From assembly GCA_001768735.1 (NCBI GenBank), contig MEMB01000007.1, forward strand, positions 106,386 to 170,385: a stretch of DNA of 64,000 bases, read 5' to 3'. Below, piece by piece: positions 16,516 through 46,381 of the stretch. Each line of letters begins with the position of its first letter. Position 1 is the stretch's first letter. The DNA is from Alphaproteobacteria bacterium GWF2_58_20. GTDB taxonomy: Bacteria; Pseudomonadota; Alphaproteobacteria; UBA1247. The translations under genes and the position numbers were made by a program. The notes beneath the pieces were generated by a model, which was not told the DNA's origin, searched no databases, and saw only the letters and a program-made list of their open reading frames with translations.

Positions 16516-16532
16516 AGTGTTTCCCGGCCCGC

Positions 16533-22858: not shown

Positions 22859-23155
22859 GGCAACCCTCCGGAGTAAGTGTATGGATGCAACATTGAAACA
22901 TGGGCATCTTAGCTTCCCTTTAAGGGAAAATCAATGGTTCATCTTGAGCTGCGTCCTCATGGTTCCCTCCCGGAATGTCTTGGCGGGCCTTGTGAGTTCC
23001 ATGTTGACCGGCCATGCCCCATGAGGTAAAACAGAAGGGATCCGGAATCTGTCCCTTTTTTAGGCGGGTGCTGGTTTCATGGTTTTGTGCGGAATGTCCG
23101 GGAGGAATGCCGGGTGGTTGAACAGTCTGAAAAAGTGCAGGAAAAATCAGGGGAG

Positions 23156-25577: not shown

Positions 25578-26863
25578 TTGATCAGATGCCAGAGATGGGA
25601 GGCCCGGAGGGCGGTCCCGAGGATTTTGAGGGAATCGCCCCCCCGGTGTCGCAGGGGTTTGTTGCCCGCCAGAATCTTTCCGAAGCCTGGAAAACGCGTC
25701 CGATGTTCCGGCTTTTGGTCATCGTGATGCCGGTTGTCGCTGTGGCGGCCATCGCCATGGGGATGTTCGGCGGCAATAACGATGTGTCTGCACCTTTGCC
25801 AACACAAGGCTTGCGGACATCGGATATTTCGCTCAATCCGGCCATTCCGACAACGCCTGAGGTGAAGCAATCGGTTGAGCAATATGACGCCCAGAAAATC
25901 GACCAGGCCCTGGCAACAGGAACCAGTGCGATTGCCACGCCGATGCGTTCAGACCAGATGGGAAATTCCTCAATCATGGTTGAGGATTCTGCCGCTGATC
26001 CGTTGGCGGAATGGCGCGGAGCTTCGGACATGTCGGTTGATTACATGACCCAGACCATGATTGAAGACCAGCGTTCTGCCCGTCCACAGCAGGTGGATAC
26101 CGAGGCGCAACAGCGCCGCCAGCAGGAAAATGACCGTTTGTCGCAGGCCATGCAGGCACAGATGAATGCTCTGCTGTCGGCCTGGGTGCCCAAGGGCGCC
26201 AAGGTGACAATGGTTGAGGACATGAAAAAGGCCGAGGATGCTGCGGCCGCTGCGGCAGCCGCACAGCAGCAGGCGTCTGCGGCTCCGGCCACCATTGATT
26301 CCAGCAAGCTCAACACGCTGGCCATGGCGGGGGATGTGGTTTATGCGCAGATCCTGACCCAAGCCAATTCCGATGTTCCGGGTCCTGTTCTTGCCCATAT
26401 CCTGACGGGAAAGTTCAAAGGCGCACGGGTTCTCGGCAATTTTGAATACACGGAGGAATACCTTGTGGTGCGCTTTACCACAGCCGTCCTTGGAAACCGG
26501 GAATACAAGATCGAGGCGGTGGCCCTGGATCCCGACACGACACTGACGGGTGTTGCGACGGATGTGGACAATCATTACTTCAAGCGGATTGTCCTGCCGG
26601 CCGCAGGCGCTTTCATCAGCGGGTTTGCCAGTGCACGCGCACAGACGACAACCACCAGCACCACGACATCTGGTGGCCAGGTTGTGCAGGATACAGCCAA
26701 AGCCACGGATGAAGAACAGGTTTACAAGGGAATTGAAAGTGCCGCCGACAAGGTCCAGGAAGTTCTGGACAAGGCGGGAGATGTGCGTCCCACGGTTGTC
26801 CTGGCGGCCAATACGCCGGTGGGCATCCTGTTCATGCAGTCTGTCCGGGAGATCATGAAATGA
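25574..26863 (+). CDS. dotG: DotG/IcmE (TraO)-family T4BSS core protein with a VirB10/TrbI-like C-terminal domain
   Basis: N-terminal TM segment FRLLVIVMPVVAVAAIAMGMF. C-terminal domain GDVVYAQILTQANSDVPGPVLAHILTGKFKGARVLGNF......LVVRFT.......EYKIEAVALDPDT...GVATDVDNHYF.R. It has ATGA overlaps on both sides. Confidence 0.8.
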   Translation: MIDQMPEMGGPEGGPEDFEGIAPPVSQGFVARQNLSEAWKTRPMFRLLVIVMPVVAVAAIAMGMFGGNNDVSAPLPTQGLRTSDISLNPAIPTTPEVKQSVEQYDAQKIDQALATGTSAIATPMRSDQMGNSSIMVEDSAADPLAEWRGASDMSVDYMTQTMIEDQRSARPQQVDTEAQQRRQQENDRLSQAMQAQMNALLSAWVPKGAKVTMVEDMKKAEDAAAAAAAAQQQASAAPATIDSSKLNTLAMAGDVVYAQILTQANSDVPGPVLAHILTGKFKGARVLGNFEYTEEYLVVRFTTAVLGNREYKIEAVALDPDTTLTGVATDVDNHYFKRIVLPAAGAFISGFASARAQTTTTSTTTSGGQVVQDTAKATDEEQVYKGIESAADKVQEVLDKAGDVRPTVVLAANTPVGILFMQSVREIMK

Positions 26864-27888
26864 TCAAGGAAACGGAATACACAGGGGGCGCGCCCCTTTC
26901 TGATGACATGGAAGACGATGGGATGGCCGGAGAGGCCCGTCCTGTGCTTTCAGATGAAACCCTTGATTCCCTGCCGGAAGAAGGCGAAGGGCTTCAGGTT
27001 CCGCCTCCGGATGAGGACGAGGAAGATTTTGGAACAGCGGAGCCGGTGGTGAAATCCAGCCGCATGCTGCCCCTTATGGTTGGGGGTGGTTTCCTGGTTT
27101 TTGCCATGGCAATGGCCTATTTCCAGTTCCGTCCCAAAGCGGTTGAGGAAACAGCTTTTGTCCCGATGGACATGTCGGCCGAGATGCCGATGGCCCTGCC
27201 GGAAGTGGTGGTGCCCGGATCCATGGAGAATGATTTCCCGAAACCGTTTGAGGTTTCGCAGATGGGGATGGGAGATGCCGGGATCCCGGCGATTTTGTCC
27301 GAGCCGCAGGGTCTGGACGCAAAAGCGCCTGTTGTGGCCATGGCCGCATTTCCTGCTCCGGTGGACAATGTAAAGCCCATGACCATTGATCAGACGCCTG
27401 TCAGGGAAGAGGAATCCCTGTCGGACGCCGTGGAAGGCAAGGTTGTTGTTCTGGAAGCGCAGATAAAGGCGCTTGAAGCCCGTCTGACAGAGATGTCCGC
27501 TTTGCAGGCGCAGATTCGCAATCTTGAAAGGAAGCTGATGGACATGTCGGTTTCTGAAACCGCACCCGCGCCCATGGTTTCGTCCATGCCGGTTGCCAAG
27601 GTTGTGGAAACGCCGAAGGCGGAACCTGCCAAGGCCATGCCCGTTGCAAAAGCGGAGCCTGCGGTAAAGCCCGTGTCCGCCCCTCCGGCAAAAAAAGTGG
27701 TGAAAGCCCCGAAATGGGAACTGCGCTCGGTTGCAGGGGATGCTGCCTGGGTTGGCGAGGCCGGGAAAGCGGATGTCAAGCGCGTAATCGTTGGTGACAC
27801 CCTTGAAGGTCTTGGGAAAATCACGGCCATTCACAAGGTGGACGGGGGTTGGGTGGTTGAAGGCAGCAGGGGAACTCTTAAACCGTAA
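26860..27888 (+). CDS. dotF: DotF/IcmG (TraP)-like T4BSS protein
   Basis: Acidic N-terminus, a single TM segment (MLPLMVGGGFLVFAMAMAYF) and a coiled-coil (LEAQIKALEARLTEMSALQAQIRNLERKL). The C-terminal beta-domain reads WELRSV.GDAAWV......DVKRVIVGDTLEGLGKITAI. It occupies the conserved position after dotG. Confidence 0.6.
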   Translation: MIKETEYTGGAPLSDDMEDDGMAGEARPVLSDETLDSLPEEGEGLQVPPPDEDEEDFGTAEPVVKSSRMLPLMVGGGFLVFAMAMAYFQFRPKAVEETAFVPMDMSAEMPMALPEVVVPGSMENDFPKPFEVSQMGMGDAGIPAILSEPQGLDAKAPVVAMAAFPAPVDNVKPMTIDQTPVREEESLSDAVEGKVVVLEAQIKALEARLTEMSALQAQIRNLERKLMDMSVSETAPAPMVSSMPVAKVVETPKAEPAKAMPVAKAEPAVKPVSAPPAKKVVKAPKWELRSVAGDAAWVGEAGKADVKRVIVGDTLEGLGKITAIHKVDGGWVVEGSRGTLKP

Positions 27889-28053
27889 GGGTTTCAGGAT
27901 GGAGGATCATCCAAAACGCCTTTTTTACTTGACGTTTTTGCTTTGGTTGCACATATTCGCGCCAAAGGAATGTTTCGCTTGGAAAGATTGAACCAGAATA
28001 TGCCGGGGAAGGGACATCATCACATTCTTGCGCAGCCTGAGATCGGGCTGCGC

Positions 28054-28956
28054 ATGTTTTCGTGCGCCTTTTTCCTGTTGGCTGTCCTTCTGGCGCTGCC
28101 ATCCCCGGCCTATGCGCTGGATGTTGGGGGCATCATTTCCAATGCTGGAAACCTTGCAATTTCTTCGCCTGTTCGTATTTTCATTCACGTTGTCGCTTAT
28201 GTCGTTGGGGCCTCCCTCATTTTTCTTGGCATGTTCAAGCTGGTCAAATATGTGGATGACCCGGCGCGCAACCATCCGGTTGAGCCATGGATGTACCTCA
28301 TTTCCGGTACGCTGCTCATTTTCTTTGTCTGGTTTGTTTACCAGCGGTTGGTTCCCACCCTGTTTTCGGGGGATCTTAAAGGGGTTGGTTCTGGCGGCGG
28401 CATGGCCGGTGGATCGGGCGAGGGGCTGGATGCCCGTTTCATCAGTTTTGTGTCGAATGTTGATGGTCCCCTGCGGGCGGCCATTACAGCCATTTGCTGG
28501 CTGATTGGCGTGATCATGGCGTTTAATGGCGTGGTGCGCCTCACCAAGGTTTCGCAGAAAGGGCCCAAGGGCCCTGCGGGTGCTGGTACGCTGATGACCT
28601 TCATTGTGGCTGCCATCATGCTCAGCCTCGGCAACATGATGGAAGCCGTGAGCTTCAGCGTTCTCGGCGGCGTGGATTTCAGCACCAGTTATGAGCTGGT
28701 CGCCATTCCCAAGGCGCTTGGAAAGCATGGCGAAGCGGCGAAGAATGCCTTCCAGGCCGCGCTGGTTTTTGTCCAGCTCATCGGCTGGATTGCTTTTGCG
28801 CGCGGATGGCTGCTCATCCGCGACATTGTGGACGGAACATCGAAATCCTCGATGTTGTCGGGCTTTACCCATGTCATTGGGGGTGCGCTGGCGGCCAATA
28901 TTGGCAGCGTGCTCAAGGCCCTTCAGGCAACATTGGGCATCACCATCATCTCGTAA
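28054..28956 (+). CDS. DotE/IcmC (TraQ)-like polytopic inner-membrane protein, enlarged (about 300 aa)
   Basis: Signal-like N-terminus MFSCAFFLLAVLLALPSPAYA. Three successive TM-hairpin modules each resemble IcmD. It occupies the position between dotF and icmD. The start is uncertain (in-frame starts at 27943 and 28000). Confidence 0.5.
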   Translation: MFSCAFFLLAVLLALPSPAYALDVGGIISNAGNLAISSPVRIFIHVVAYVVGASLIFLGMFKLVKYVDDPARNHPVEPWMYLISGTLLIFFVWFVYQRLVPTLFSGDLKGVGSGGGMAGGSGEGLDARFISFVSNVDGPLRAAITAICWLIGVIMAFNGVVRLTKVSQKGPKGPAGAGTLMTFIVAAIMLSLGNMMEAVSFSVLGGVDFSTSYELVAIPKALGKHGEAAKNAFQAALVFVQLIGWIAFARGWLLIRDIVDGTSKSSMLSGFTHVIGGALAANIGSVLKALQATLGITIIS

Positions 28957-29394: not shown

Positions 29395-30093
29395 ATGTCT
29401 CTCTTTCCGGTTGTTTTGGGTGTGCGCCGTGAGGTGAAGGGAAAGCCCGGTGAAGCTTTCCCCGCCTCTGGCCTTGACGCCTCCAGTCCCGAGCTGCGTG
29501 CCCGGGTGCTGGAGCGTGATGGAAACACATGCCAGTTTTGCGGATTTACGTCGAAAAAATACCAGAATCTGGTATTCCGCAATGGCAATGCCCTGGATAC
29601 CCGGATGGAAAATCTCGCGACGGCCTGCATTTTCTGTCACCAGTGTTTCTTTCTGGAAACGGTGGCGGGCATGCGGTCGGGCGTTCTTGTCTGGTTGCCG
29701 GAAATGGATGCGGCGGCGCTTCACCACGTTTGCCGCGCCATTTATATTGCCCGGATCAGCCAGGGGCCGGTGGCCGATGCCGCCCGCATTGCCCTTGATG
29801 CGCTGATTTCGCGGCGTGATGAGGCGCGCAAGCGCCTTGGCACGGACGATCCGGCCATTCTGGCTGGTGTCCTGCAGGATTTCCTGGAGGACAAGGATTA
29901 TGCGATGCGCAGTCGCAAGCTGGACGGTATCCGGCTTTTGCCGCTGGATCGGCGCATCATCCGTGACGGGGACATGGAGTTCAACCAGTTTCCCCAAATT
30001 CTTGCTTACTGGCGTTCCAAGGATGGGCCATTTGGCGGCGTGCCGCCGGCCGGATGGGAACAGCTTTTTGATCAGGTTTCATCCCTGGCCTGA
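29395..30093 (+). CDS. icmJ: IcmJ/DotN (TraT)-like zinc-binding T4BSS protein
   Basis: Four-Cys motif RVLERDGNTCQFCGF......LVFRNGNALDTRMENLATACIFCHQC. It lies immediately upstream of dotO, as in Dot/Icm and IncI loci. Confidence 0.65.
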   Translation: MSLFPVVLGVRREVKGKPGEAFPASGLDASSPELRARVLERDGNTCQFCGFTSKKYQNLVFRNGNALDTRMENLATACIFCHQCFFLETVAGMRSGVLVWLPEMDAAALHHVCRAIYIARISQGPVADAARIALDALISRRDEARKRLGTDDPAILAGVLQDFLEDKDYAMRSRKLDGIRLLPLDRRIIRDGDMEFNQFPQILAYWRSKDGPFGGVPPAGWEQLFDQVSSLA

Positions 30094-30153: not shown

Positions 30154-33138
30154 ATGGCCAGGTTGATTGATGATATCCTCGGGTCCTTTTTTGCTGCCAT
30201 GCATCAGCCGGTCGAATCCTATGTCCGTCTTGAAACGGCGGATGACAGCCAGACCCTTGTTGCGGGAGATGGCTCGCTCCTGACCATTCTCAAGATCCAT
30301 GGGGCCCGCCAGATCATTGGCGACGAGGAATATCGCTTTATTGTGGAGCAGGCTTCGGTGAAGCTGGGGGCACGGTTTGACCGCCCCGGCCATGCCATGC
30401 AGGTGTATTTCAGCCGCGATCCTGAACGCATGGTCAGGGAAATCGGCGACATGGTGCGGCCCAGCGAACTGACGTCGCGGGCCATTGGGCTTGATCTTGC
30501 CGACCTCTTCGAGGAGCGCCGTCGCAACCTGTCGCGCTACCTCGCGTGGGAGGATATTTATTTCGTCCTGTGGACCCGCCCCGTGGCCATGACGGATGTG
30601 GAACGCAAGAATGAGGAACAGAAGCGCCGTGCCCGTCCATGGGTGGTGGCGCCCACCGCCCAGTACCCCTTTGCGGCGCTTGAATCGCTGCGGAGCCGGC
30701 ACGGCAGTTATGTCTCCTCCATTGCGAGCTCTCTTGAGGAAATCGGTATCCAGTCCAGTGTTGTTGAAGTGCATGAGGCCCTTTCTGCCGTCCGCACCAG
30801 CATCTATCCCAATCTGGCCAATGATCGCTGGCGTCCCTGCCTGCCGGGCGATCCGATACCTGTGCGCGCGCTACAGAGCAGAAGTGACCTGTCCGATGTG
30901 CTGTGGCCTGCCCTGCGCCGCCAGTTGTGTGTGGGGGATGCCGAGGTCAAGACCCAGAATTCCGTGCGAATCGGCAACCAGATCTGGTCGGGCGTGGACA
31001 TGACTCTGGCTCCCATGGAACCCAGCCCGTTTCCGGTGTTTCTGGGCCGGTTGGTGGAAGCCGGAATTCCGTTCCGCATTTCCTTCCTGATTGAGGCGGG
31101 GGGCGCTTCGGCTCTCGGGTTCAAGAAGGCTGTTGCCTCCATTTTGGGCTTCAGCAATGACGTGAACAAGCAGATCAAGGATTCGCTGGAAGGGATTGAA
31201 GCCCTGGCCCGTGATGAAGCCGTGGTCAAGTTGCGGATTTCCATGGCGACATGGGCGCCTCCGGACCAGCCAAAACTTCTGGAGGAACGCACATCCATGC
31301 TGGTGCAGGCCTTTGAAGGCTGGGGCTATTGCCAGGTATCACAGATTGCGGGCGACCCGCTGGATTGCGTGATGTCTTCGGCGCTCGGCATTGCCTGTGC
31401 CTCCACGGCACCTGCGGCCATTGCGCCTTTTTACGATGTTCTCAAGCTGTTGCCGTGGCAGCGGGCATCCAGCCCGTTTGACAAGGGATCGGTTCTCCTG
31501 CGCTCGCCGGACGGACGTGTGTGGCCCTATCAAACCGGGACGAATCTTACCACCACCTGGTTCGACCTGATTTTCGCCCAGCCGGGTGCAGGCAAGTCGG
31601 TGCTGATGAATGCGCTGAACCTTGGCACCTGCCTTACGCCAGGGCTTTCCCAGTTGCCTTATGTGGCCATTATCGACATTGGTCCGTCATCTGCGGGGCT
31701 TGTGTCCCTTCTCAAGGATGCCATGCCGCCGGAACGCCGCCATGAAGTGGCGCATTACCGTCTGCGCATGACGCCGGAATATGCCATCAACCCGTTTGAT
31801 ACCCAGCTGGGGTCGCGCTATCCACTGCCCGATGAGCGTTCCTATCTTGTGGAACTCCTCACCCTGTTGTGTACGCCGCCAGGACAGCCGGTGCCTTATG
31901 ATGGCATTCCCCAGCTCTGCGGGCTGGTGGTGGATGAAATGTTCCGCTGGCGGGATGATGTGACCGCAAATGCCGAGGCGCATCCCTACCTGCAGCGGAT
32001 TGATGAAGAAGTGGACAAGGCCATTTCCGACCGCAATATTCACCTGCCGACGGAAGCGACATGGTGGGATGTGGTGGATGGCCTGTTTGAGGCCGGGGAT
32101 ACGCATGCGGCCATGCTGGCGCAGCGTTATGCGGTTCCGACATTGACCGATGCCGTGACGGCTTCGCGTCGGCCGCAGATCCGGGCGCTTCTGGAAGAGA
32201 CCAAGATCAGCGCCGGTGCGGAAAGCGTCATTGGCGCGTTTGAGCGCATGATTGCCTCCAGCATTCGTGAGTTTGCGCTGCTGGCCTCCGTCACCAAGTT
32301 TGATATTGGTGATGCCCGCGTGTGTGCGCTCGACCTTGGCGAAGTGGCTCCGCAGGGGGATGAAACATCGGATCGCCAGACGGCCATCCTCTACATGCTG
32401 GCGCGCCATGCGCTGGTGCGGCATTGGTGGCTGGGCGAAGATGCCCTCAAAAACCTCAATCCGAAATACCGCGAACATCATGAACTCCGCCTGCGATCAA
32501 TCCGCGAATCGCCCAAGCGCCTGTGTTATGATGAGTTCCATCGCACCAGCAAATCGCGCTCGGTGCGCGCCCAGGTGGTGCGTGACGTGCGCGAAGGCCG
32601 CAAGTGGGGCGTGCAAATTGTTCTTGCCTCGCAGCTGCTGGAAGATTTTGACGACAACATGATTGACCTTGCCACAGGCGTGTGGATTCTGGGTGCGGCC
32701 ATTTCCGAGCGTTCGGTGGATCAGGCCGCCAAGCGGTTTGGCCTGTCCGACACGGCACGCTGGTACATGCGTTATCGCCTTACCGGGCCGCGTTCCAGCG
32801 GGGCGCCTGCGCTCATGGTGCTGGGCACCAATGAGGGGCGTTATGAGCAGTTCCTCATCAACACCCTTGGCCCCATCGAGCTGTGGGCGCTTTCGACATC
32901 CTCCGAGGATGTTTCCATCCGGACACGCGTTTACCATCGTTTGGGCGCCAAGCTGGGGCGTGAAATCCTGGCCACCAACTATCCGGGGGGCAGTGCGCGC
33001 AGTGAAATTCGCCGTCGCGTCACCCAGCTTTCTGAAAAGGGTGAAGTGGAAAGCGCCGCCACGTCGGTGGTGATCGAGGATATTGTGAACGAGCTGGTGC
33101 AAGCGGCGGTGGCCGCGCAGAGATTGCAGTTGTCCTGA
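30154..33138 (+). CDS. dotO: DotO/IcmB (TraU) T4BSS VirB4-class ATPase
   Basis: 994 aa. Walker A in IFAQPGAGKSVLMNAL. Walker B-like region in LCYDEFHRTS...GRKWGVQIVLASQ. Size and position are typical of DotO. Confidence 0.85.
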   Translation: MARLIDDILGSFFAAMHQPVESYVRLETADDSQTLVAGDGSLLTILKIHGARQIIGDEEYRFIVEQASVKLGARFDRPGHAMQVYFSRDPERMVREIGDMVRPSELTSRAIGLDLADLFEERRRNLSRYLAWEDIYFVLWTRPVAMTDVERKNEEQKRRARPWVVAPTAQYPFAALESLRSRHGSYVSSIASSLEEIGIQSSVVEVHEALSAVRTSIYPNLANDRWRPCLPGDPIPVRALQSRSDLSDVLWPALRRQLCVGDAEVKTQNSVRIGNQIWSGVDMTLAPMEPSPFPVFLGRLVEAGIPFRISFLIEAGGASALGFKKAVASILGFSNDVNKQIKDSLEGIEALARDEAVVKLRISMATWAPPDQPKLLEERTSMLVQAFEGWGYCQVSQIAGDPLDCVMSSALGIACASTAPAAIAPFYDVLKLLPWQRASSPFDKGSVLLRSPDGRVWPYQTGTNLTTTWFDLIFAQPGAGKSVLMNALNLGTCLTPGLSQLPYVAIIDIGPSSAGLVSLLKDAMPPERRHEVAHYRLRMTPEYAINPFDTQLGSRYPLPDERSYLVELLTLLCTPPGQPVPYDGIPQLCGLVVDEMFRWRDDVTANAEAHPYLQRIDEEVDKAISDRNIHLPTEATWWDVVDGLFEAGDTHAAMLAQRYAVPTLTDAVTASRRPQIRALLEETKISAGAESVIGAFERMIASSIREFALLASVTKFDIGDARVCALDLGEVAPQGDETSDRQTAILYMLARHALVRHWWLGEDALKNLNPKYREHHELRLRSIRESPKRLCYDEFHRTSKSRSVRAQVVRDVREGRKWGVQIVLASQLLEDFDDNMIDLATGVWILGAAISERSVDQAAKRFGLSDTARWYMRYRLTGPRSSGAPALMVLGTNEGRYEQFLINTLGPIELWALSTSSEDVSIRTRVYHRLGAKLGREILATNYPGGSARSEIRRRVTQLSEKGEVESAATSVVIEDIVNELVQAAVAAQRLQLS

Positions 33139-33320: not shown

Positions 33321-34331
33321 TCAGGGAGCGGGTTTTGGCGCGGGCAGGGCGGGAGTCGGATGTTTACCATGGCGCGGCAGGCGTACAGGCAAGCCGGCGG
33401 CTTTCTGATTCATGGCGTAGGCCAGGGATTGTTGGAGTCTGGTTGCACGCGTCCGGGTTTTCGGGTGGTTTTGGGCGTGTTTGTGCAGTTTTTTCTGGGC
33501 CAGGTACACGGTTTTTTTCCACGTCTCATCCGTTGTGGTGGCGGCAACCTGTTCCAGGATGATGTTGCAAATATCCAAGCGTGCTTCTGTCGGTTTCTGC
33601 ATATAGTGACGCATGGCAAGATGGAAGGTGCCTTCATTGGTGGCGGCACCATGCCCGGTCAGAAACGCGGCATGTTCGGCATCTCCATCCCGGATGGTGT
33701 AATTCAGGAGGGGAATGTCGCCAACCAATGTGTTGTCGCAAATGTTTGGGTTCAAACCGTTTTCAATCAGGATGCGGGCGATTTTCTTGTTTTTAATAAT
33801 GACTTTTGTGTTCTCTGACGTGCGATAAAAATTATATGTCGATTGCACGCCTTCTGAATGGATCAAACGTTCGATTTCAAAGCTGTCTTCAGCTTGAATG
33901 GCGGAGGCAAGCTTGGTTTGCTGGTTGCACAGTCTGCCCAGGAAGGCGAGATTCGTGATGCAGGTGATGAGCAGAACCCATGGCGCTGTTGAGAGGGTGG
34001 CAAGGCTTGCGGCCCCCATGGCCCAAAATCCGCACCAGGCCAAGTTGCGGGTCTTGGTCAGGTAGGCGTGGCCCTTCCATGTTGTCCGCGCCGTGTCCTG
34101 GGCCTGTGTGCGCTTGATATCTTCCTGCTGGATGAAACTTTGCAAGACCTGTGCCGCATGGGTTTTTTCATCGGTTTCGGAATCCACATTGTAAAGCCAT
34201 GCCTGTTTTTTCAGGGTTTGGCCGTGCATCTCGAAGCTTTTGCGCGCGACAATTTCCTGGTCTGGCAGGAGATCTTCCTCATATGGTTCAGCCGGAATAT
34301 GTGACGGATGCCTGAATTGGGTTTCTGTCAT
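33321..34331 (-). CDS. Membrane-hairpin ankyrin-repeat protein, paralogue 1 (candidate T4BSS effector)
   Basis: Two adjacent TM helices (LAWCGFWAMGAASLATL / PWVLLITCITNLAFLG) are followed by ANK-like repeats (ILIENGLNPN..D......PLLNYTIRDGDAEHAAFLTGHGAATN). The C-terminal tail reads LPVRLPRHGKHPTPALPAPKPAP. The internal stretch is visibly A/T-rich. Confidence 0.6.
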   Translation of the reverse strand: MTETQFRHPSHIPAEPYEEDLLPDQEIVARKSFEMHGQTLKKQAWLYNVDSETDEKTHAAQVLQSFIQQEDIKRTQAQDTARTTWKGHAYLTKTRNLAWCGFWAMGAASLATLSTAPWVLLITCITNLAFLGRLCNQQTKLASAIQAEDSFEIERLIHSEGVQSTYNFYRTSENTKVIIKNKKIARILIENGLNPNICDNTLVGDIPLLNYTIRDGDAEHAAFLTGHGAATNEGTFHLAMRHYMQKPTEARLDICNIILEQVAATTTDETWKKTVYLAQKKLHKHAQNHPKTRTRATRLQQSLAYAMNQKAAGLPVRLPRHGKHPTPALPAPKPAP

Positions 34332-34348
34332 GGGAATCCCTTATCTTC

Positions 34349-35353
34349 TTAAGGTTGTTTTGGCTGTGGGGCTGGCAGCTGGCGCGGCAGCCGCACAGGC
34401 AGTTTTGCCGCCCGCTGGCTCATGGCCTGCATGAGCCGTTTCCGGATATCCGGCAGGAAGGGATGGTCCTTCATGTCCGCCAGCGTTCTCTCCATGAGAC
34501 GCATTTCCCGCCGCCATCCTTCATGGGATGCCTGGCTGCCGGCCTGTTCCAGCAGCATGCCAAGAATGTCGAAAAAGGGTTTGCGGGCTGCATCGGGATT
34601 CTTGCTCTTCTGCAGTTCGGTGACAAGCTGGCCGAGATCCGATCCGGTGGTGCTGAAAAGGCCGACCGTGGCCCCATGGTGCAGCAGCATGGCCACGCGG
34701 TCGCTATCCAGATCCTTCATCGCTGTTTGGAGGGGATTGAGGCGATGTCTGAAAACACTGCGGACGTTTGGGTTGAAACCATTCTCCAGCAGGAGTTTTG
34801 CGATTTTGTTGTCGGTCTCCTTGAAGGCGCCCGGCATGGGGTTTTCCACGGCGACCACCGGGCCAAACGCGCCATGTACGGGACAATTCGGGTTGACGCC
34901 TTCGGCCAGCAGGCGGCGGATTTCAAACTCCTCCCGGTTTTCCACGGCTTCGGCCAGCAAAGATTCCTGGCAGAGATGCTTGAAGAACAGGGCCGCGTTG
35001 GCGATGGCCGCCACGCCGGCCAGCCATGGCATGACCGGCAACATCGCAATGCCAGCCCCCCCGACGGCAAAAAAACCGGCCCAGGCCAATCTGCGGACGC
35101 GGCGGGCGCGGGTTTTATCGCCCCACCCCTGTTCCAGCCGTGTTTCCTCCTGCCGCAGGATGTTGTCCATGACCTGCCGGGTGCTGGTGGCCTCGTCCGC
35201 ATCGGGGGAGACAGCATACATATCCGGGTTCTCCCGGATGAATTGCTCCATGAAGCGCAGGCTTTTGCGTGCCGCCAGCTCCTTGTGGGAAGGCATCTCG
35301 TCTTCGGCTTGCTCTTGCGGGAGACATGGCGGTTGTTTGAATTCCGTGGTCAT
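34349..35353 (-). CDS. Membrane-hairpin ankyrin-repeat protein, paralogue 2 (candidate T4BSS effector)
   Basis: Same architecture: TM helices LAWAGFFAVGGAGIAML / PWLAGVAAIANAALFF and ANK-like LLLENGFNPN......LNPLQTAMKDLDSDRVAMLLHHGATV. The tail reads KLPVRLPRQLPAPQPKQP. The start was set at MTTEFKQPP, parallel to MTETQFRHPS of paralogue 1. This gives an ATGA overlap with the upstream gene. Confidence 0.6.
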   Translation of the reverse strand: MTTEFKQPPCLPQEQAEDEMPSHKELAARKSLRFMEQFIRENPDMYAVSPDADEATSTRQVMDNILRQEETRLEQGWGDKTRARRVRRLAWAGFFAVGGAGIAMLPVMPWLAGVAAIANAALFFKHLCQESLLAEAVENREEFEIRRLLAEGVNPNCPVHGAFGPVVAVENPMPGAFKETDNKIAKLLLENGFNPNVRSVFRHRLNPLQTAMKDLDSDRVAMLLHHGATVGLFSTTGSDLGQLVTELQKSKNPDAARKPFFDILGMLLEQAGSQASHEGWRREMRLMERTLADMKDHPFLPDIRKRLMQAMSQRAAKLPVRLPRQLPAPQPKQP

Positions 35354-35946
35354 GGCATGTCTGTCCTGGAAAAAGGTGAGGGCTTGGGGGCGGTTTTGCG
35401 GAGCTTCTGGATCCATGGTGCGGGTTCGAGGCCAAGCCTTTTTTCGCGTTGTCTGGCTTCGTTGAGGAGGCGGAAAGCCCTTTCATCCCACGAGGCCTTG
35501 TTGAAAAGCAGGTTTTCACCAAGTTCTTCATAAAGGCCGGAAAAATCGGCGTTCGGATCCTGGCTTGTGAAGGCGTTATTGACATCGATGATGACGGGAT
35601 TCCTGGCATGAAAGAAGTTGGCCCAGATTTTCGGCTGGACAGGGAAAGGGCAATGGGCAGGGTCGATCACCAAGGGCACAATGCGCCCGTCGGGCCATGT
35701 CGTCATCAGGCACGGGGCGACATGGAGGTTGAATTCCATGGTTTCATTCCCCTCATGTTTTTTGATCAGCCAAGCTTGCCGCGTGTCGATGCCCTGCTCC
35801 ACCATTTGTATGCTTTTTACATGGGCGCGACAGTCGCAGCAGGTGTTTGTCACGCCCAGGGCCAGCTCTTCGCTGCGGGCGAAATACTCGAACCATGCAA
35901 CGGCTTCCGCGGGTGTCACGGTTTTTCTGGGAGTGGATGCCTGCAT
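35350..35946 (-). CDS. Protein-glutaminase-like (papain/transglutaminase-fold Cys-His-Asp) protein, paralogue 1; candidate glutamine deamidase effector
   Basis: CCDCRAH ... LHVAPCL ... LVIDPA has the spacing and context of the protein-glutamine glutaminase triad. My recollection of the Chryseobacterium enzyme is DGCYARAH ... YHVAILV ... IIDPS. The tail contains TAPKPSP. Confidence 0.55.
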   Translation of the reverse strand: MQASTPRKTVTPAEAVAWFEYFARSEELALGVTNTCCDCRAHVKSIQMVEQGIDTRQAWLIKKHEGNETMEFNLHVAPCLMTTWPDGRIVPLVIDPAHCPFPVQPKIWANFFHARNPVIIDVNNAFTSQDPNADFSGLYEELGENLLFNKASWDERAFRLLNEARQREKRLGLEPAPWIQKLRKTAPKPSPFSRTDMP

Positions 35947-36521
35947 TATGGGGTTCCGGTCATGTTTGGCATAGGCACAAGGGCCAGGGACTTTTCCTTG
36001 CGGATCCGCGTGACCCAGCGGCGGGGTTTCAGGTGGTGTATCATAGAGAACGCATAGGCATGGGATAAGGTGTCGTTGGTCTGCTGGTCACGCATCGCGG
36101 CAGATCTTTTGTATTTTTCATTCCAATAATATCTGTCTTCCTGAGGGTTTGCGCAGTCCGTGATGAGGAACTGGGTGGCCTTCATGCCTTTTGTCCAGAC
36201 CTTGGGGGAGACTGGACGGGGATAAAAGACAGGGTCGATGACCACCGGTTTGGCGGTTCCATTTTTGCCGACAACCATCAGGCAGGGGGCGACATGGAAG
36301 ATGACATCCATTTTTTCCGCTTGCCGGGGCGTTTCCATATCCGAAGCCACCCAGATTTTCCGGGTGTCAAGCCCATGGGCCTGCATGACAGAACAGATGA
36401 GGTGGGCGCGGGCGAAGCAGCCGTTCCAATTAAAAGCTGGCGCCATATCCTTGCGCAGGGCGAAGTATTCAAACCACTGCTGCGCTTCTTCTGGCGTGAC
36501 GGTTTTGTGTTTTTCGGACAT
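35946..36521 (-). CDS. Protein-glutaminase-like Cys-His-Asp protein, paralogue 2
   Basis: Contains NGCFARAHLICSVMQAHGLD ... FHVAPCLMV ... VVIDPVFYPRPVSPKVW. Its stop TAA shares one base with the ATG of paralogue 1. Confidence 0.6.
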   Translation of the reverse strand: MSEKHKTVTPEEAQQWFEYFALRKDMAPAFNWNGCFARAHLICSVMQAHGLDTRKIWVASDMETPRQAEKMDVIFHVAPCLMVVGKNGTAKPVVIDPVFYPRPVSPKVWTKGMKATQFLITDCANPQEDRYYWNEKYKRSAAMRDQQTNDTLSHAYAFSMIHHLKPRRWVTRIRKEKSLALVPMPNMTGTP

Positions 36522-36617
36522 GTTTCTCCCTCGTATCTATCATGCCGAAGATAAGGCAAGCGGGGGCAATGCAGAATTGCTGATTGTGCAACCCAGCCCT
36601 GCGCGGCGCGCATGGGT

Positions 36618-38774
36618 TCAGGTTTTCAGGCGGTGGAGGGCGGTTTCCAGTGTGGAAATGGCATATGCCTTGTCGGTTTCGGAGATTTTCTCCAGATCGA
36701 CGGTAATGGCGAAATTGTCGCGCTGTTCATGGATGGTGGTTTGCGACATGTCGATCTCGCCATAAAAGCCGATGACGCGATACGTTTGCACGGGCTGGGC
36801 AAATCCCTTGACGCTGATGGGGTCCTGCGCTTCGCCCAGCACAAGATCCTTCACCAGGGCATAGGTTTCATACGAGAGGACAATATCGCCCGGCTGGGCG
36901 GTGGATTGCAGGCGGGAGGCCAAATTCACTTCGCTGCCGATGAGCGTGTAATCCATTCGCTCCTCGCTGCCAAAGTTCCCCACCGTGCAGTAGCCGGTAT
37001 TGATGCCCACGCGCATGTGGAACGGACGTTCCATGCCTTTGTCGCGCCATTCCATGCGCATTTCCGCCAGGCGTTTTTGCATGGCGATGGCGGTATGGAC
37101 GGCGGCGATGGCATCCTCGCGCGCGCCGCGGCTTTCAGGGTCGCCGTAAAACAGCATGATGGCATCGCCCATGTACTTGTCGATGGTCGCGCCATGCAGC
37201 AGGGCGATCTTGGTCATTTCCTGGAAATATGTGTTGATGATGGTGGAAAGCTCTTCGGCTTCCATGCTGTCCGAGGAGGCCGTGAAGCCAACAATGTCGC
37301 AGAACAGGATGGAGAGTTTCTTGCGCTGGGCACCTACCTTGACATCGCGGTTTCCGCTGAAAATTGAGTTGTAGATCTGTGGCGACAGGTATTTGGAAAT
37401 CTTGTCGGACAGGTTTTCAAGATACCGGTTCTTTTCCTGCAGCAGGACATTGGCGGCCCGCAGTTCGCCCGTCCGTTCGCGTACCTGGAATTCCAGCGTG
37501 TGGTTGAGATGCTCAAGGTCCACCGACATGTGTTCCATTTTTTCATGGGCCTTGTTCACCTTGAGGCCGATGACCGCCGCATGGGAGAAGACAAAGATGA
37601 TGAAGCCGGCATGCGCCATGTCCACGGTCTGCACAATGTGGGCGTAAAAAAGGATGTCATTGATGGTGGTAACGGCGACGAGTGCAAGGCCGCCGGCAAT
37701 CCAGAAGGCGCTGTCACGCCGGTGCAGGCATGCACGCACCAGGGTTGAGACGGAAAACAGGATGGTGCCGAACACCACGGCCATGGCCGGGTCGCGCAGG
37801 CGGGTGTAAATGTGCGCCGGGAAAAGCAGCATGACGGTGGTGGCAAAAATGCCAAAGGCAAAAAGGCCTGTGCGGACCCGTGGTTCAATTTCATCCGGGA
37901 ACAGCCAGCCCAGCAGCGCATAATAAAAGCCAACACCCAGGAAGGGGGCAAGATATTCCAGCGGCAGGTACCATTCGGCCGAAATGTCCGGCAGGAAGTC
38001 GAGGACAAGCTTGCTGGTGCCAAGGGTGCGCAGGCTGATGAGCAGAATGAGCAGGCCAAGATAGAGGTAGCCTTTTTCCTTGGGGCGATGCAGGAAGAGA
38101 AGGAGCTGGTAGAAGGCGATGATGAGACCGGCCCCGATGGTCAGGGCGTTGAGGAGGCGGACGTTGAGGGCCCGCTTGGCCAGAAGATGGGATCGGCCCA
38201 GCCGGATGGCGCGGGCAATGCCCCCTTCATAGTGATAGTGGTTGGATACCTGCATGACGATATCGAGAGAGCTTTCTCCCGTTGGCAGGTTGACCACCCG
38301 GGTTTGGGAAACCGGAACTTCGGTTGCCCGGCTGTCTCCCACCATGCCGATATAGTCAAGGTTGACGCCATTGACCCATAGGTTGAAGGCATAGTTGAGT
38401 TCGCCAATTTCAAGGGCCAGCGCTGGTGCGCCCTGCGGCAGGACAATCTTCAGGTGGTAGGTGGCCATGCCCGTGCCGGGCAGGTCGCGTCCGCAAGCAA
38501 ACTGGCCGTTCCAGATAGCAGGAACCTGGATGAAATCCATGCATGCGGACGTGCCCTTTTCCAGGTCTTCGGGCGTGAGTTTCTGGTCCCAGTAAAAGCC
38601 CCAGTTGCCAAAAAGGTCCACCACGGGGGTTTGGGTGAAATCCCATGTCGAAAGGTCTATGACGCCTTTTTCAGCGCGCGGCATCCGGAGGGTCTTGGCC
38701 GCCGCGGCCTCTTTTCCCGCAAGGGAGAGGCTGAGCAGGAAAACGGCAAGAAGGGTGAAAATCCGCATGCGCAT
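36618..38774 (-). CDS. 7TM-receptor (7TMR-DISM type) class III adenylate/guanylate cyclase
   Basis: The N-terminal signal peptide and extracytoplasmic domain are followed by about 7 TM helices and then a coiled-coil. The cyclase domain reads KKLSILFCDIVGFTA........L....N.YF.EMT.I...HGATIDKYMGDAIMLFYG ... RVGINTGYCTVGNFGS..R.DYT.IG..VNLASRL. Confidence 0.85.
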   Translation of the reverse strand: MRMRIFTLLAVFLLSLSLAGKEAAAAKTLRMPRAEKGVIDLSTWDFTQTPVVDLFGNWGFYWDQKLTPEDLEKGTSACMDFIQVPAIWNGQFACGRDLPGTGMATYHLKIVLPQGAPALALEIGELNYAFNLWVNGVNLDYIGMVGDSRATEVPVSQTRVVNLPTGESSLDIVMQVSNHYHYEGGIARAIRLGRSHLLAKRALNVRLLNALTIGAGLIIAFYQLLLFLHRPKEKGYLYLGLLILLISLRTLGTSKLVLDFLPDISAEWYLPLEYLAPFLGVGFYYALLGWLFPDEIEPRVRTGLFAFGIFATTVMLLFPAHIYTRLRDPAMAVVFGTILFSVSTLVRACLHRRDSAFWIAGGLALVAVTTINDILFYAHIVQTVDMAHAGFIIFVFSHAAVIGLKVNKAHEKMEHMSVDLEHLNHTLEFQVRERTGELRAANVLLQEKNRYLENLSDKISKYLSPQIYNSIFSGNRDVKVGAQRKKLSILFCDIVGFTASSDSMEAEELSTIINTYFQEMTKIALLHGATIDKYMGDAIMLFYGDPESRGAREDAIAAVHTAIAMQKRLAEMRMEWRDKGMERPFHMRVGINTGYCTVGNFGSEERMDYTLIGSEVNLASRLQSTAQPGDIVLSYETYALVKDLVLGEAQDPISVKGFAQPVQTYRVIGFYGEIDMSQTTIHEQRDNFAITVDLEKISETDKAYAISTLETALHRLKT

Positions 38775-42834: not shown

Positions 42835-44019
42835 TCAGTCCAGCTGCATGATCATGGTCTTGAGGTAGGCGCTTTCCGGCAGCTGGGGATGTACGGGATG
42901 GTCGGGGCCCGCACCACCCGTATGGATGACGCGTCCGGTGCGTCCGGATTCGGATGCGCCGCGGCAAATTTCCTGCTGGAATTCGGCAGGGCTTGCGTTG
43001 TGGCTGCAAGAGGCGGCAAGCATGAATCCACCAGGACGGACAAGGCGGGCGGCCAGCCGCGCCATTTTCCGGTAGCCCTTGAGACCTGCAAACAGGTCCT
43101 TTTTCGATTTCACGAACGCGGGGGGATCGACGATCACAATGTCAAAGCTTTCCCCGGCGGTTGCCAGGCGTTCCATTTCCGCAAAGGCTTCCCCGCGCAG
43201 GAAGGTGCATTTTTCGGAAACCCCATTGGTTTCGGCTGCGGCATTGGCTGAAGCCAGCGCCAGTTCCGAGCGGTCAATCCCGACCACTTCAGAGGCGCCC
43301 CCCATGGCGGCGGCAATGGAAAAGGCCCCTGCATAGCAAAACATGTCCAGGATGCGCCGGTCTTTCGCGATGGCCTTGATGAAGGTGCGGTTGGGGCGGT
43401 GATCAAAAAACCATCCGGTTTTCTGGCCTTCCAGCGGATCAACGGCAAAGCGCGCCCCGTTTTCGATGACTTCGATGGGGCCGGATTCCGGTCCCTTCAG
43501 AACGCGAACCTCACTGGCCATGCCCTCCATGTCGCGGGCCGAGCTGTCGCCGCGCAGGATAATGCGGCGCGGGGCAAGAACCTCTTCGAGGGCGGTGACA
43601 ATGCTGTCCATGCAAAGGGAAACGCCCGCGGAATTGGCCTGGATGACACAGGTGTCGCCAAAGCGGTCAATCACGAGGCCCGGCAGGCCGTCAGCCTCGG
43701 CGTGGACAAGACGATAGTGCCCTTCCGGAAAGAAAACGTCGCGCAGCGCCTTGGCCTTGCCAAGACGTTCCGCAAAAAAGGCGGAATCAATGGCGATATC
43801 CGGTTTCCGGACAAGGATACGGGCCGCGATCAGGGAATGGGGGTTGAAAAAGGCCGTGGCAAAGGCATGTCCATGGGGATCGGTGAGTGTGACAACACTT
43901 CCGGGCGGCAGGGCCTTGGCCTCGGCATTCATGTCGATTTCATTGGAATAGACCCACGGATGTCCGGCGGAAACGCGTCGGTTGTGTCCAGACTGCAGGG
44001 TGATTTTGGGGTGGGTCAT
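42835..44019 (-). CDS. rlmI: 23S rRNA (cytosine-C5)-methyltransferase RlmI-like (PUA plus class I methyltransferase)
   Basis: N-terminus ...LQSGHNRRVSAGHPWVYSNEI. SAM motif ILDMFCYAGAFSIAAA. Catalytic region DIVIVDPPAF. Confidence 0.75.
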   Translation of the reverse strand: MTHPKITLQSGHNRRVSAGHPWVYSNEIDMNAEAKALPPGSVVTLTDPHGHAFATAFFNPHSLIAARILVRKPDIAIDSAFFAERLGKAKALRDVFFPEGHYRLVHAEADGLPGLVIDRFGDTCVIQANSAGVSLCMDSIVTALEEVLAPRRIILRGDSSARDMEGMASEVRVLKGPESGPIEVIENGARFAVDPLEGQKTGWFFDHRPNRTFIKAIAKDRRILDMFCYAGAFSIAAAMGGASEVVGIDRSELALASANAAAETNGVSEKCTFLRGEAFAEMERLATAGESFDIVIVDPPAFVKSKKDLFAGLKGYRKMARLAARLVRPGGFMLAASCSHNASPAEFQQEICRGASESGRTGRVIHTGGAGPDHPVHPQLPESAYLKTMIMQLD

Positions 44020-44906
44020 GAAGGGATGTCCTTGTGTCCAGGTTGATTGTGAAAGAAGCCATTGCAGAAAATGGTTTCCGGCGCAAGCTTTTGTGCGTGG
44101 TCATGGGCTTCTTCCGGAGAAATTTTTTCGGCAAGGATGTTCCTGATCAGGCAGGCGATGTCCGCGGGAGGGATGTTTTCCTCCGGCTGGATGCGCAAAG
44201 CGGATATGCCCATGGCGGCAATTTGCGGGACTTCACGGAGCAGATTGGTGCAGTGCGCGGAAAGGACAAGAGGGCCGCTGGCGGAAAGGAAGGGCATGCC
44301 TTCCAGGGTATGGATCACCATGGGATGGCCATTGTTCCGGGAGCAGGCCGATTGACATGTCTCACGCGTACGGCCCGCAGACCTTGCCGAAAAGCAGCGG
44401 GCGGAAATGGCCAGGGAGGCATGTCCGAATACCTGGATTTCCAGGGGGATGGGACTGTTTCTGGCCAGGTTGCTGATGACGCCGGATGGCAGGTCAAAGG
44501 GCAGGCAGGCGCTTTTTGCGCCGTTTTCCGCAAGGATACGCAGGGTATCCTCATTGGTGATGGACAGGAAGGGGCCCAGGGTATGCGGCCTGCCCTGCAA
44601 CAGGGCAACTGCGGTCATGTCATTGGCTTCCACCAGCCTCTTGCCGTTTTTCATTTCCGCAATGTGCGTGCGTTCCTGTTGGCTTTTGGGGAGGGCAAGG
44701 GTAGAAAAGACCACGGTTTTTCCCGCACTTTCCATCCGGGCCACAATATCATCCAGCATGTTGGATGTGATGCGGATGCGGTGCGCGCAGGTGATTTCGC
44801 CCAGAAAGACCGTGTCAATGGCCGCCTCGTCTGCCACGCGCAAGTAAAAATCCTGACGCGTGTCGTGGGGCCAGTTGTAGGGAAGCGGGCCCAGCGTGAT
44901 CTTCAT
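44016..44906 (-). CDS. ubiV: U32-family protein UbiV (O2-independent ubiquinone hydroxylation)
   Basis: MKITLGPLPYNWP....DFY......A.D.VFLGE..C and HASLAISARCFSARS parallel my recollection of E. coli YhbV/UbiV. It overlaps ubiU by 4 nt. Confidence 0.75.
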   Translation of the reverse strand: MKITLGPLPYNWPHDTRQDFYLRVADEAAIDTVFLGEITCAHRIRITSNMLDDIVARMESAGKTVVFSTLALPKSQQERTHIAEMKNGKRLVEANDMTAVALLQGRPHTLGPFLSITNEDTLRILAENGAKSACLPFDLPSGVISNLARNSPIPLEIQVFGHASLAISARCFSARSAGRTRETCQSACSRNNGHPMVIHTLEGMPFLSASGPLVLSAHCTNLLREVPQIAAMGISALRIQPEENIPPADIACLIRNILAEKISPEEAHDHAQKLAPETIFCNGFFHNQPGHKDIPS

Positions 44907-45874
44907 GCCCAGTCCTTTCCATAAGCGCCGAGGGAGGCAGTCCCGCCTTCATAAAGCGAGGAAATTCCCGGGGAAGGCTTTCCATCCAGCAAGCTACGGA
45001 AGGCATGAACCACTTGCGCCACATAGGCCCGGCTGCGCTGGCGGCCTTCAATCTTGAGGGCTGCGATGCCTGTCTCCACAATCTGGGGAAGAATGCTGCT
45101 GATGTCGAGACTTCCGGGCTCTGCAAAGGGATGGCATGGCGTTCCCTCGACAAGGTAGCGGCCCTTGCAGACCGTTGGATAACCGGCATAACGGCTGGCA
45201 GAAAAACGATCGAGGGCAAACATGCCCAGACGGAAGGTGGTGGTGTCTCCGGTTTCCTCAAATCGGGCCGCAGAGGCGGGTGAGCAGGCGCCTCCCCGGT
45301 TGGGGGAAATGCCGCAAGCTTGGCCTGACAGGGCGCAGCGGCCTTCGGCCATGATGCAATACCCGCCAAAGGCAAAGGCTTCGCAGGGGACGTCGGATTC
45401 AGCCACCAGCGCCGTGAGGTCTTCAAGGGTGAGGACCCGTGGCAAAACCACGCGTGCGATGCCGAAGCGGTCTTTGTAAAAGGCAAGGGCTTCAGGTGTG
45501 CAGGCTGAAGCCTGAACCGACAGGTGGCGGCGCAGGCCTGGATGCTTGCGGGCAGCATGGTCGCACAGTCCGACATCCGCAAGGATGACGGCGTCCGCGC
45601 CACAGGATTCCGCGTCAGAGATCGCCTTGTGCCACGGTCCGGTGTTCCCGGCCTCAGGAAAGGTGTTGATGGCAATATAGAGTTTGGCGTGGTGGCGGTG
45701 GGCAAAATCGGCAGCCTGGACCATTTCCTCCATGGAAAAGTTGAGGCCGGGAAAATGGCGGGCGTTGGTTTCATTCCGGAAACCGGCATATACGGCATCG
45801 GCCCCTGCCATGACGGCGCTTGCAAGGGCTGCGGGCGTTCCGGCCGGGCAGACAAGTTCCGGCTTCATGGGCAT
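44903..45874 (-). CDS. ubiU: U32-family protein UbiU
   Basis: ELVCPAGTPAALASAVMAGADAVYAGFRNETNARHFPGLNFSMEEM...KLYIAINTF closely parallels the N-terminus of E. coli YhbU/UbiU. Confidence 0.8.
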   Translation of the reverse strand: MPMKPELVCPAGTPAALASAVMAGADAVYAGFRNETNARHFPGLNFSMEEMVQAADFAHRHHAKLYIAINTFPEAGNTGPWHKAISDAESCGADAVILADVGLCDHAARKHPGLRRHLSVQASACTPEALAFYKDRFGIARVVLPRVLTLEDLTALVAESDVPCEAFAFGGYCIMAEGRCALSGQACGISPNRGGACSPASAARFEETGDTTTFRLGMFALDRFSASRYAGYPTVCKGRYLVEGTPCHPFAEPGSLDISSILPQIVETGIAALKIEGRQRSRAYVAQVVHAFRSLLDGKPSPGISSLYEGGTASLGAYGKDWA

Positions 45875-46326: not shown

Positions 46327-46381
46327 GGACCATCTCTTGTGTTATGTTCGTTGCGGGTAAACACTATAGGAAGAATATGCC

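Follow-up and report, generated by a model that had tools for sequence, protein, structure and literature searches.

The window analyzed here, 64,000 nucleotides of contig MEMB01000007.1 from Alphaproteobacteria bacterium GWF2_58_20, carries a four-gene cassette beside the genes of a Dot/Icm-type type IVB secretion system (T4BSS). Two of the genes encode PG-A and PG-B, paralogous members of the protein-glutaminase family (PF18626) that appear to be active and to be made in the cytoplasm, and the two genes that follow encode the ankyrin proteins Ank1 and Ank2. By analogy with polymorphic-toxin loci, we infer that the four genes form an effector-plus-partner cassette. The reading that we tentatively favor, at slightly less than even confidence, is that PG-A and PG-B are exported toxins with predicted deamidase activity, that the ankyrin proteins are their cognate neutralizing partners, and that the adjacent T4BSS is the most plausible exporter.

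Family, triad, and fold of PG-A and PG-B

The first-pass annotation, made from the bare sequence, had described a tandem pair of protein-glutaminase-like genes, and the two open reading frames lie where it placed them (35946..36521 and 35350..35946 on the minus strand). Their products are paralogs with 34% identity over 184 residues (E 3e-29). Both exceed the curated gathering threshold (25 bits) of the Pfam model PF18626 (Gln_deamidase_2), PG-A with 64.7 bits (E 9.8e-18) and PG-B with 31.9 bits (E 1.6e-7), and the assignment is thus not a chance motif match. The Cys, His, and Asp motifs quoted in the annotation are present in both proteins, as G-C35-F-A-R-A-H, F-H76-V-A-P, and V-I-D96-P in PG-A and as C-C-D-C-R-A-H, L-H-V-A-P, and V-I-D-P in PG-B. 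In the HMMER alignment, Cys35, His76, and Asp96 of PG-A are paired with residues 42, 83, and 103 of mature protein-glutaminase from Chryseobacterium (2ksv/2zk9), which we take to be the numbering of its catalytic triad. The active-site role of the triad residues is attributed to Hashizume 2011 in PMC9396377. The three columns are invariant across a 48-sequence family alignment, and the triad is intact in six of six members of the window clade, PG-B included.

Profile and structure comparisons likewise point to the protein-glutaminases. By sequence, PG-A matches the solved protein-glutaminases in the Protein Data Bank (PDB; 2KSV, 2ZK9, 3A54, 3A56, and 8Z3I), and a profile of the PF18626 family retrieves protein-glutaminases from the PDB (E 1e-26 to 4e-20) and nothing besides them at E up to 0.01. 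The fold comparison covers the AlphaFold2 model of PG-A, which has a pLDDT of 85.8 and a pTM of 0.84. The best six Foldseek matches of this model in the PDB are protein-glutaminases, with probability 1.00, E values of 2e-6 to 1.4e-5, and TM scores of about 0.5–0.55 (8z3i/2ksv/3a56/3a54/2zk9). The next match among the 50 listed is the papain-like effector SpvD at E 0.25. The family named in the first-pass annotation is thus borne out, and the analogy that it drew with Cif/CHBP and MavC finds no support here.

Neither protein has a signal peptide or a pro-peptide, as had been proposed. The N-termini (MSEKHKTVTPEEAQQWFEYFA... in PG-A and MQASTPRKTVTPAEAVAWFEYFA... in PG-B) are hydrophilic and show no hydrophobic signal-peptide core, and the PF18626 domain begins at residue ~14–17, with no pro-region before it; each protein consists of this domain and a helical C-terminal region and nothing else. 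The NCBIfam equivalog NF040782, which describes the secreted Chryseobacterium type and has a cut-off of 250 bits, gives 26.8 bits, with only profile positions 173–258 matched. This score, together with the lack of a signal and a pro-region, makes PG-A and PG-B members of PF18626 rather than orthologs of the secreted enzyme. Judged by sequence, both look like active enzymes of the protein-glutaminase family that are made in the cytoplasm. Because they belong to this family, their predicted chemistry is deamidation: as papain/transglutaminase-like Cys-His-Asp amidohydrolases, they would turn glutamine residues of proteins into glutamate.

Partner genes and a variable catalytic core

The gene junctions indicate that PG-A, PG-B, and the two ankyrin genes are translationally coupled. 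A ribosome-binding site (GAGGGAG) stands 5 nt upstream of the PG-A ATG, the PG-A stop and PG-B start have one base in common (TAATG), and the PG-B stop overlaps the Ank1 start as ATGA if Ank1 begins at 35353, a start that is backed by the Ank1 ortholog of a related locus, L002. The first-pass annotation had described overlaps that chain the two PG genes to each other and to the ankyrin genes; these are present at the two junctions, and Ank1 and Ank2 do not overlap but are separated by 17 nt that include an AAGGGA ribosome-binding site. The adjacency to the T4BSS described in the same annotation is also found, with 183 bp between the end of the cassette (Ank2) and the stop of the convergent icmB/dotO gene. 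A scan of the leader upstream of PG-A for promoters and terminators found none that was convincing, with counts near the shuffled expectation. A gene for a 7TMR-DISM sensor-cyclase lies on the same strand 96 nt upstream of PG-A, and co-transcription is possible.

Ank1 and Ank2 are 31% identical and have a common architecture, in which an acidic N-terminal region of ~85 residues is followed by a hydrophobic hairpin of ~40 residues (about residues 89–128 of Ank1 by hydropathy), ankyrin repeats, and a basic, Pro-rich C-terminal tail. Singly, the two proteins match ankyrin models weakly (Ank1 alone matches Ank_2 at E 0.011); a profile of the five-member Ank family retrieves ankyrin chains from the PDB with E values down to 8.5e-56. 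Basic, Pro-rich C-termini are found on all four cassette proteins (33321–36521): …RIRKEKSLALVPMPNMTGTP, …KLRKTAPKPSPFSRTDMP, …AAKLPVRLPRQLPAPQPKQP, and …AAGLPVRLPRHGKHPTPALPAPKPAP. The four tails may serve as a common signal or as a motif for interaction. RNase J, encoded elsewhere in the window (11148–12896), has a PKP-rich tail too.

The wider family provides the context for these partner genes. An exhaustive profile search returned 1,613 cluster representatives of PF18626, and a second scan of 185,579 species genomes, guided by the motif DGC[YHF][AS]RAH[LI], returned 98 relatives; the locus statistics given here rest on the best 80 of these 98, in species-representative genomes. This motif is of the Micavibrio type and biases the list of organisms, such that it may miss members whose motif differs, for instance in Legionellales. 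In homologs, the PF18626 domain forms the C-terminal part of Rhs and VgrG proteins and is also fused to PAAR (PF05488), WXG100 (PF06013), and DUF4280 (PF14107). By their domain content, these carrier fusions have the architecture of polymorphic toxins delivered by type VI secretion systems (T6SS), type VII secretion systems (T7SS), or Rhs proteins. The best 80 loci are dominated by predators (Micavibrio, Bdellovibrionales, Bacteriovorax, Halobacteriovorax, and Herpetosiphon) and also take in Gemmataceae, Saprospiraceae, and others. Free-standing and N-terminally extended PF18626 proteins (L007–L086) are concentrated in predators (also Bacteriovoracaceae, Bdellovibrio, and Saprospiraceae) and in Gemmataceae, and several metagenome-assembled genomes (MAGs) have multiple copies. 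Free-standing enzymes of the Micavibrio type (alignment A4, e.g. L004 9327–10699) have a conserved C-terminal Q-G-K-T-W-(V/I)-S after a low-complexity linker, a motif that is absent from the window clade.

In almost every locus, a partner open reading frame comes directly after the protein-glutaminase-family (PG) gene, often with stop and start overlapping. Small partners (63–109 aa) fall for the most part into one family (46 of 56), for which no Pfam match was obtained in five of five members scanned. Examples are found in Micavibrio-like and Bdellovibrio-like genomes (L010 10671–10883 and L036 10546–10809), and the typical motif is …F-x-V-S-F-x-x-H-x-G-Y-F…F-x-Y-D-x-x-L-N-I. Enzyme and partner agree in whether they carry a signal peptide (odds ratio 30, Fisher p 1.4e-4): both lack one in the alphaproteobacterial versions, and both have one in the Bdellovibrio-like versions. 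Because its signal peptide is matched to that of the enzyme, the small partner is suggested by these sequence data to be a trans-acting inhibitor or immunity protein. Other clades have different partner families, including arrays resembling a toxin-immunity-toxin-immunity (T-I-T-I) order in which the PG-partner unit is repeated three times. In the window clade, the partner position is held by genes for ankyrin proteins with the transmembrane (TM) hairpin, two after the two PG genes of the window and one after the single PG gene of loci L003 and L087. A hidden Markov model of the small partner, run in six frames on the window and on L001–L003 and L087–L089, gave no matches; thus, the ankyrin proteins are not disguised small partners. 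Through its carrier fusions, its enrichment in predators and Gemmataceae, and its matched downstream gene, the family points to a toxin with a cognate partner, of the kind found in interbacterial or predatory systems.

A word-indexed search with PG-A found just two close relatives beyond the window's own pair, and an alignment of the four-sequence clade found no relative when scanned over the 185,579 species genomes. The related cassette loci recovered are L001, L002, L003, and L087. The gene order in L002 is that of the window (PG-A, PG-B, an ankyrin-TM gene, and the Ank1 ortholog, which is 64% identical to Ank1), with at least two ankyrin-TM genes and with the PG-B ortholog keeping its operon position. 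L003 and L087 represent the closest relative of the T4BSS (IcmB 91% identical), and their order is icmB, a FAH-like gene, and a convergent pair composed of one PG and one ankyrin-TM gene, such that the cassette is next to icmB both there and in the window.

Locus L001 is 86.5% identical to the window in nucleotide sequence from the upstream cyclase gene (95% identity at the amino acid level) across the spacer between the two genes and ~113 nt into the PG gene. When positions 1618–2199 of L001 are compared with 35946–36521 of the window, the core cannot be aligned as DNA, whereas the last ~51 nt are 82% identical. Identity of the encoded protein to that of the window drops from 77% in the N-terminal part to 31% in the core and rises again to 62% in the C-terminal part, and the triad is intact. 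This pattern suggests that the catalytic core has been replaced like a cassette as close relatives diverged. With conserved flanks and ends and with differing cores and copy numbers, it is the site that is conserved, and the catalytic core and the copy number that vary. A third PG copy, sought at the right end of the window on the basis of Micavibrio synteny, was not found there.

A tentative reading as exported toxins with partners, and the alternatives

The localization-matched partner rule, the carrier fusions, and the core polymorphism together suggest that the enzymes are dangerous to their producer and meant for another cell. A pro-peptide restrains the secreted enzyme, and a separate partner plausibly restrains the free-standing forms; for this reason we read the ankyrin-TM proteins as neutralizing partners, which they are likelier to be than independent co-effectors. 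In the mechanism that we envisage, the four genes would be co-translated, and the cytoplasm-facing ankyrin domains would render the enzymes harmless by binding them at the inner membrane of the producer, acting in trans as the counterpart of the covalent pro-peptide in the secreted Chryseobacterium enzyme. The enzymes would then be exported into another cell, most plausibly through the adjacent Dot/Icm-type T4BSS. Genes for two IcmL proteins, IcmK, IcmE, IcmJ, and IcmB all lie within 13 kb, and this system is the obvious candidate exporter and a plausible one. In the recipient, which could be bacterial prey, a bacterial competitor, or a eukaryotic host, the enzymes would deamidate glutamines of target proteins. 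The narrower version, in which the T4BSS injects PF18626 deamidase toxins into bacterial prey or competitors and the membrane-anchored ankyrin proteins provide producer immunity, we consider quite unlikely.

Several observations weigh against exported toxins with ankyrin partners. No export signal was identified on the PG proteins, and no N-terminal trafficking or carrier domain was found on PG-A or PG-B. A Glu-rich type of C-terminal signal is known from Legionella substrates, and the basic, Pro-rich tails of the PG proteins are unlike it. Only a narrow clade has the cassette next to a T4BSS, and this adjacency is not a trait of the family. Of the 80 loci, 0 have a Dot/Icm gene within 10 kb of their PG gene, and in two remoter T4BSS loci of the same lineage (IcmB 68% and 64% identical) icmB is not followed by a PG or an ankyrin gene; both results weaken the T4BSS-effector reading of the first-pass annotation. 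The gene order is toxin-toxin-immunity-immunity (T-T-I-I), not T-I-T-I. The ankyrin proteins, which have ~335 residues and combine an 85-residue acidic region with a TM hairpin and a Pro-rich tail, are elaborate for a role in immunity and resemble membrane-inserting effectors, and the AlphaFold2 model of Ank1, built from a two-sequence alignment, is all-helical and of low confidence (pLDDT 58.7). To our knowledge, Dot/Icm-type systems serve for eukaryote-directed effectors and for conjugation, including interbacterial transfer of DNA, and not for delivery of toxins into bacteria, a point that would favor a eukaryotic recipient. Finally, the activity of cytoplasmic PF18626 members is a prediction from sequence, and no validated effector with this domain was found in the literature.

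In a possible but rather unlikely alternative, the four proteins would all be Dot/Icm substrates aimed at eukaryotes. The ankyrin proteins would insert into host or vacuolar membranes through a bilobed hairpin, in an Inc-like manner, and the PG proteins would deamidate host proteins, for example ubiquitin-like modifiers. The setting suits such a role in that the adjoining Dot/Icm-type system is chromosomal and apparently inherited vertically, and no relaxase was seen in the window; however, the T4BSS and the ankyrin genes are the only hint of a eukaryote-associated lifestyle that was found, and the lineage is related to Micavibrio by the naming of IcmB homologs and by its RsmB and FtsJ-like proteins, which are 52–60% identical to their counterparts in Micavibrio loci. 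Ankyrin repeats combined with a ~40-residue hydrophobic hairpin are like those of known membrane-targeted effectors, TM segments occur in roughly a third of type IV secretion effectors according to PMC12981334, and the tails common to the four proteins could be a common signal. The PF18626 domain has also been labeled a T4BSS effector in silico (PMC10318531), but no Legionellales are present among the 80 listed loci, which are mostly from predators with Planctomycetes and scattered MAGs in addition, and members of the family are joined to carriers of the T6SS, T7SS, and Rhs types, which are often antibacterial. Although rapid turnover of the core suits host-pathogen conflict as well as interbacterial conflict, the strict localization-matched partner rule implies a need for self-protection, which is not expected with a eukaryote-specific target and thus weighs against this alternative, as does the lack of structural likeness to Cif/CHBP or MavC among the 50 Foldseek matches listed.

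It is also conceivable, if improbable, that the system is self-directed, with the PG proteins acting in the producer cytoplasm as regulatory protein deamidases in the manner of CheD, which acts on chemoreceptors, the ankyrin proteins as scaffolds or substrates, and the T4BSS nearby by coincidence. The absence of a detectable secretion signal or carrier domain would fit, but toxin-carrier fusions occur elsewhere in PF18626, and in Bdellovibrio-like genomes both enzyme and partner have signal peptides. Restriction of the T4BSS adjacency to a narrow clade and a conserved housekeeping context in Micavibrio-type genomes (PG-partner-FtsJ-IMPDH-RsmB) point in the same direction, whereas replacement of the core between close relatives is atypical for housekeeping enzymes. 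An anti-phage defense or toxin-antitoxin module, with the PG proteins as abortive-infection toxins held by the ankyrin proteins, is highly improbable: the logic of a toxin plus a neutralizer would suit it and the ankyrin regions of Ank1 and Ank2 weakly match the PADLOC candidate PDC-M72A (E 8e-5 and 3e-3), but these matches are confined to the repeat region, PG-A and PG-B have no PADLOC match, no defense or mobile-element genes are adjacent, and base composition is uniform over the window.

Genomic setting and known systems

Coordinates of the cassette, the secretion genes, and the neighboring cyclase gene are collected in Table 1.

Table 1. Features of the window, with positions counted from its first nucleotide
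Feature	Position	Strand	Description
PG-A	35946..36521	-	191 aa; protein-glutaminase family PF18626; predicted catalytic C35/H76/D96
PG-B	35350..35946	-	198 aa; PG-A paralog; PF18626; triad retained
Ank1	34349..35353	-	334 aa; acidic N-terminal region, hydrophobic hairpin, degenerate ankyrin repeats
Ank2	33321..34331	-	336 aa; Ank1 paralog; same architecture
Leader	36522..36617	-	96 nt between adenylate-cyclase gene and PG-A; holds ribosome-binding site
7TMR-DISM adenylate/guanylate cyclase	36618..38774	-	Pfam; synteny anchor
IcmL/DotI-like	23087-23797	+	Pfam PF11393
IcmL/DotI-like	23782-24477	+	Pfam PF11393
IcmK/DotH	24474-25577	+	Pfam PF12293
IcmE/DotG	25574-26863	+	Pfam PF03743; DotG/IcmE model outscores IncI TraO
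Open reading frame without assignment	26860-27888	+	
IcmJ/DotN	29395-30093	+	NCBIfam IcmJ_DotN 108 bits, cut-off 100
IcmB/DotO	30154-33138	+	994 aa; homologs named IcmB; weak TraC/VirB4 matches

The same order of T4BSS genes is found in L087, L088, and L089, and homologs of IcmB at 62–69% identity number in the hundreds, on contigs of up to 2.2 Mb. Those that are named (NCBI, JGI) come from MAGs labeled Micavibrio, Alphaproteobacteria, or Rhodospirillales. The cultured Micavibrio aeruginosavorus ARL-13 was reported to be without type III and type IV systems (PMC3189940); since the window has a T4BSS, its source would be a lineage related to Micavibrio but distinct from it. A literature search found no paper on a T4BSS in the Micavibrio-related group, and there is apparently a large, undescribed Micavibrio-like group with Dot/Icm-type systems. 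Two long overlapping open reading frames within the T4BSS cluster, 27925..28872 on the minus strand and 27943..28956 on the plus strand, have no family match; the gene caller picked the plus-strand frame at the corresponding place in L087, and the minus-strand frame aligns there too, at 44% identity.

The remaining window is ordinary chromosome, with genes for FlgK/FlgL, RNase J, PntB, UbiD/U/V, AsnS, HtpX, and RsmB. UbiV, UbiU, and UbiD are encoded together with a second large U32-family protein (44016–47851 and 49902–52304), a set that points to O2-independent ubiquinone biosynthesis and thereby to a facultatively anaerobic lifestyle. A 701-aa protein with three Lcl_C (DUF1566) stretches is encoded on the plus strand at 23–2128, and a 1,223-aa open reading frame on the minus strand at 12863–16534 has no family match and is possibly spurious. 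Both lie near the T4BSS and may be surface or effector proteins.

The PF18626 family is already known, as is its link to Dot/Icm neighborhoods, drawn in silico by Ozhelvaci & Steczkiewicz in 2023 (PMC10318531). Their supplementary table labels PF18626 a 'Type IVb secretion system effector', such that the statement in the first-pass annotation that this fold had not been described as T4BSS cargo was out of date. A literature search for PF18626 or protein-glutaminase with Legionella, Icm, or T6SS toxins returned only this classification paper. What is new relative to the literature searched is the tandem of paralogs, the TM-ankyrin partners, the polymorphism of conserved ends and variable cores, the family-wide partner rule, the enrichment in predators, and the Micavibrio-related T4BSS setting. 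Protein-glutaminase is best known as an enzyme that Bacteroidota secrete and that is used in food processing, and no biological role was found to be established for cytoplasmic or carrier-fused members of PF18626.

The locus offers a compact, testable system of two enzymes, two candidate neutralizers, and a neighboring secretion machine. It bears on whether glutamine deamidation is a general antibacterial or anti-host weapon, on the target of the enzyme, and on whether partners acting in trans replace a pro-peptide, and the function of a Micavibrio-like T4BSS could bear on how epibiotic predators or symbionts attack their partners. If the cassette proves to be merely one more effector-immunity pair, it would still add a new pairing, that of PF18626 with a TM-ankyrin protein, and an annotation rule for about 1,600 homolog clusters. 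If the T4BSS does inject toxins into bacteria, it would be the first of the type IVB systems to serve in killing or preying on other bacteria, and the cytoplasmic PF18626 proteins would have their first functional assignment.

Among characterized enzymes, PG-A and PG-B are closest to the protein-glutaminases of Chryseobacterium proteolyticum (EC 3.5.1.44; 2ZK9, 2KSV, and 3A54–3A56) and Flavobacterium (FBPG; 8Z3I), with the same PF18626 domain and predicted fold and with a triad that aligns residue for residue in the contexts GC(Y/F)ARAH, HVAP, and IDP. Sequence identity to the known protein-glutaminases is about 17–20%. The Chryseobacterium enzyme is composed of a 21-aa signal, a 114-aa inhibitory pro-region, and a 185-aa mature enzyme (PMC9396377, PMC6132073). 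Enzymes of this type are Sec-secreted pre-pro-proteins, whereas PG-A and PG-B have neither a signal nor a pro-region and are paired with separate partner genes. The Dot/Icm genes near the cassette match the genomic neighborhood noted for PF18626 in PMC10318531, a paper that gives neither an experiment nor a list of organisms and names no partner genes or target; our analysis differs in finding the adjacency restricted to a clade and in describing the ankyrin-TM partners, tandem paralogs, and core polymorphism.

Cif/CHBP, Legionella MavC/MvcA, Shigella OspI, and Burkholderia TecA share with PG-A and PG-B the predicted Cys-His glutamine deamidation and the concept of an injected effector, but they belong to different families. 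None of them is among the 50 Foldseek matches listed, and neither Cif/CHBP nor MavC/MvcA was found in the sequence and profile searches of the PDB. Any likeness would be one of mode of action only.

The cassette as a whole can be compared with the polymorphic toxins. Zhang et al. 2012 (PMC3482391) describe papain-like toxins such as Tox-TGase in these systems and recognize ankyrin proteins as an immunity class, Imm-Ank. Unlike polymorphic toxins, PG-A and PG-B are free-standing, lack a carrier domain, and stand in a T-T-I-I order, Ank1 and Ank2 have a TM hairpin and long extensions, and the nearby machine is a T4BSS rather than a type V secretion system, a T6SS, or a T7SS. What is shared with polymorphic-toxin systems is the use of PF18626, in homologs, as a C-terminal warhead on Rhs, VgrG, PAAR, and WXG100 carriers, together with a cognate gene directly behind the enzyme gene, cores that differ by replacement among close relatives, and ankyrin repeats, which are a recognized class of immunity protein.

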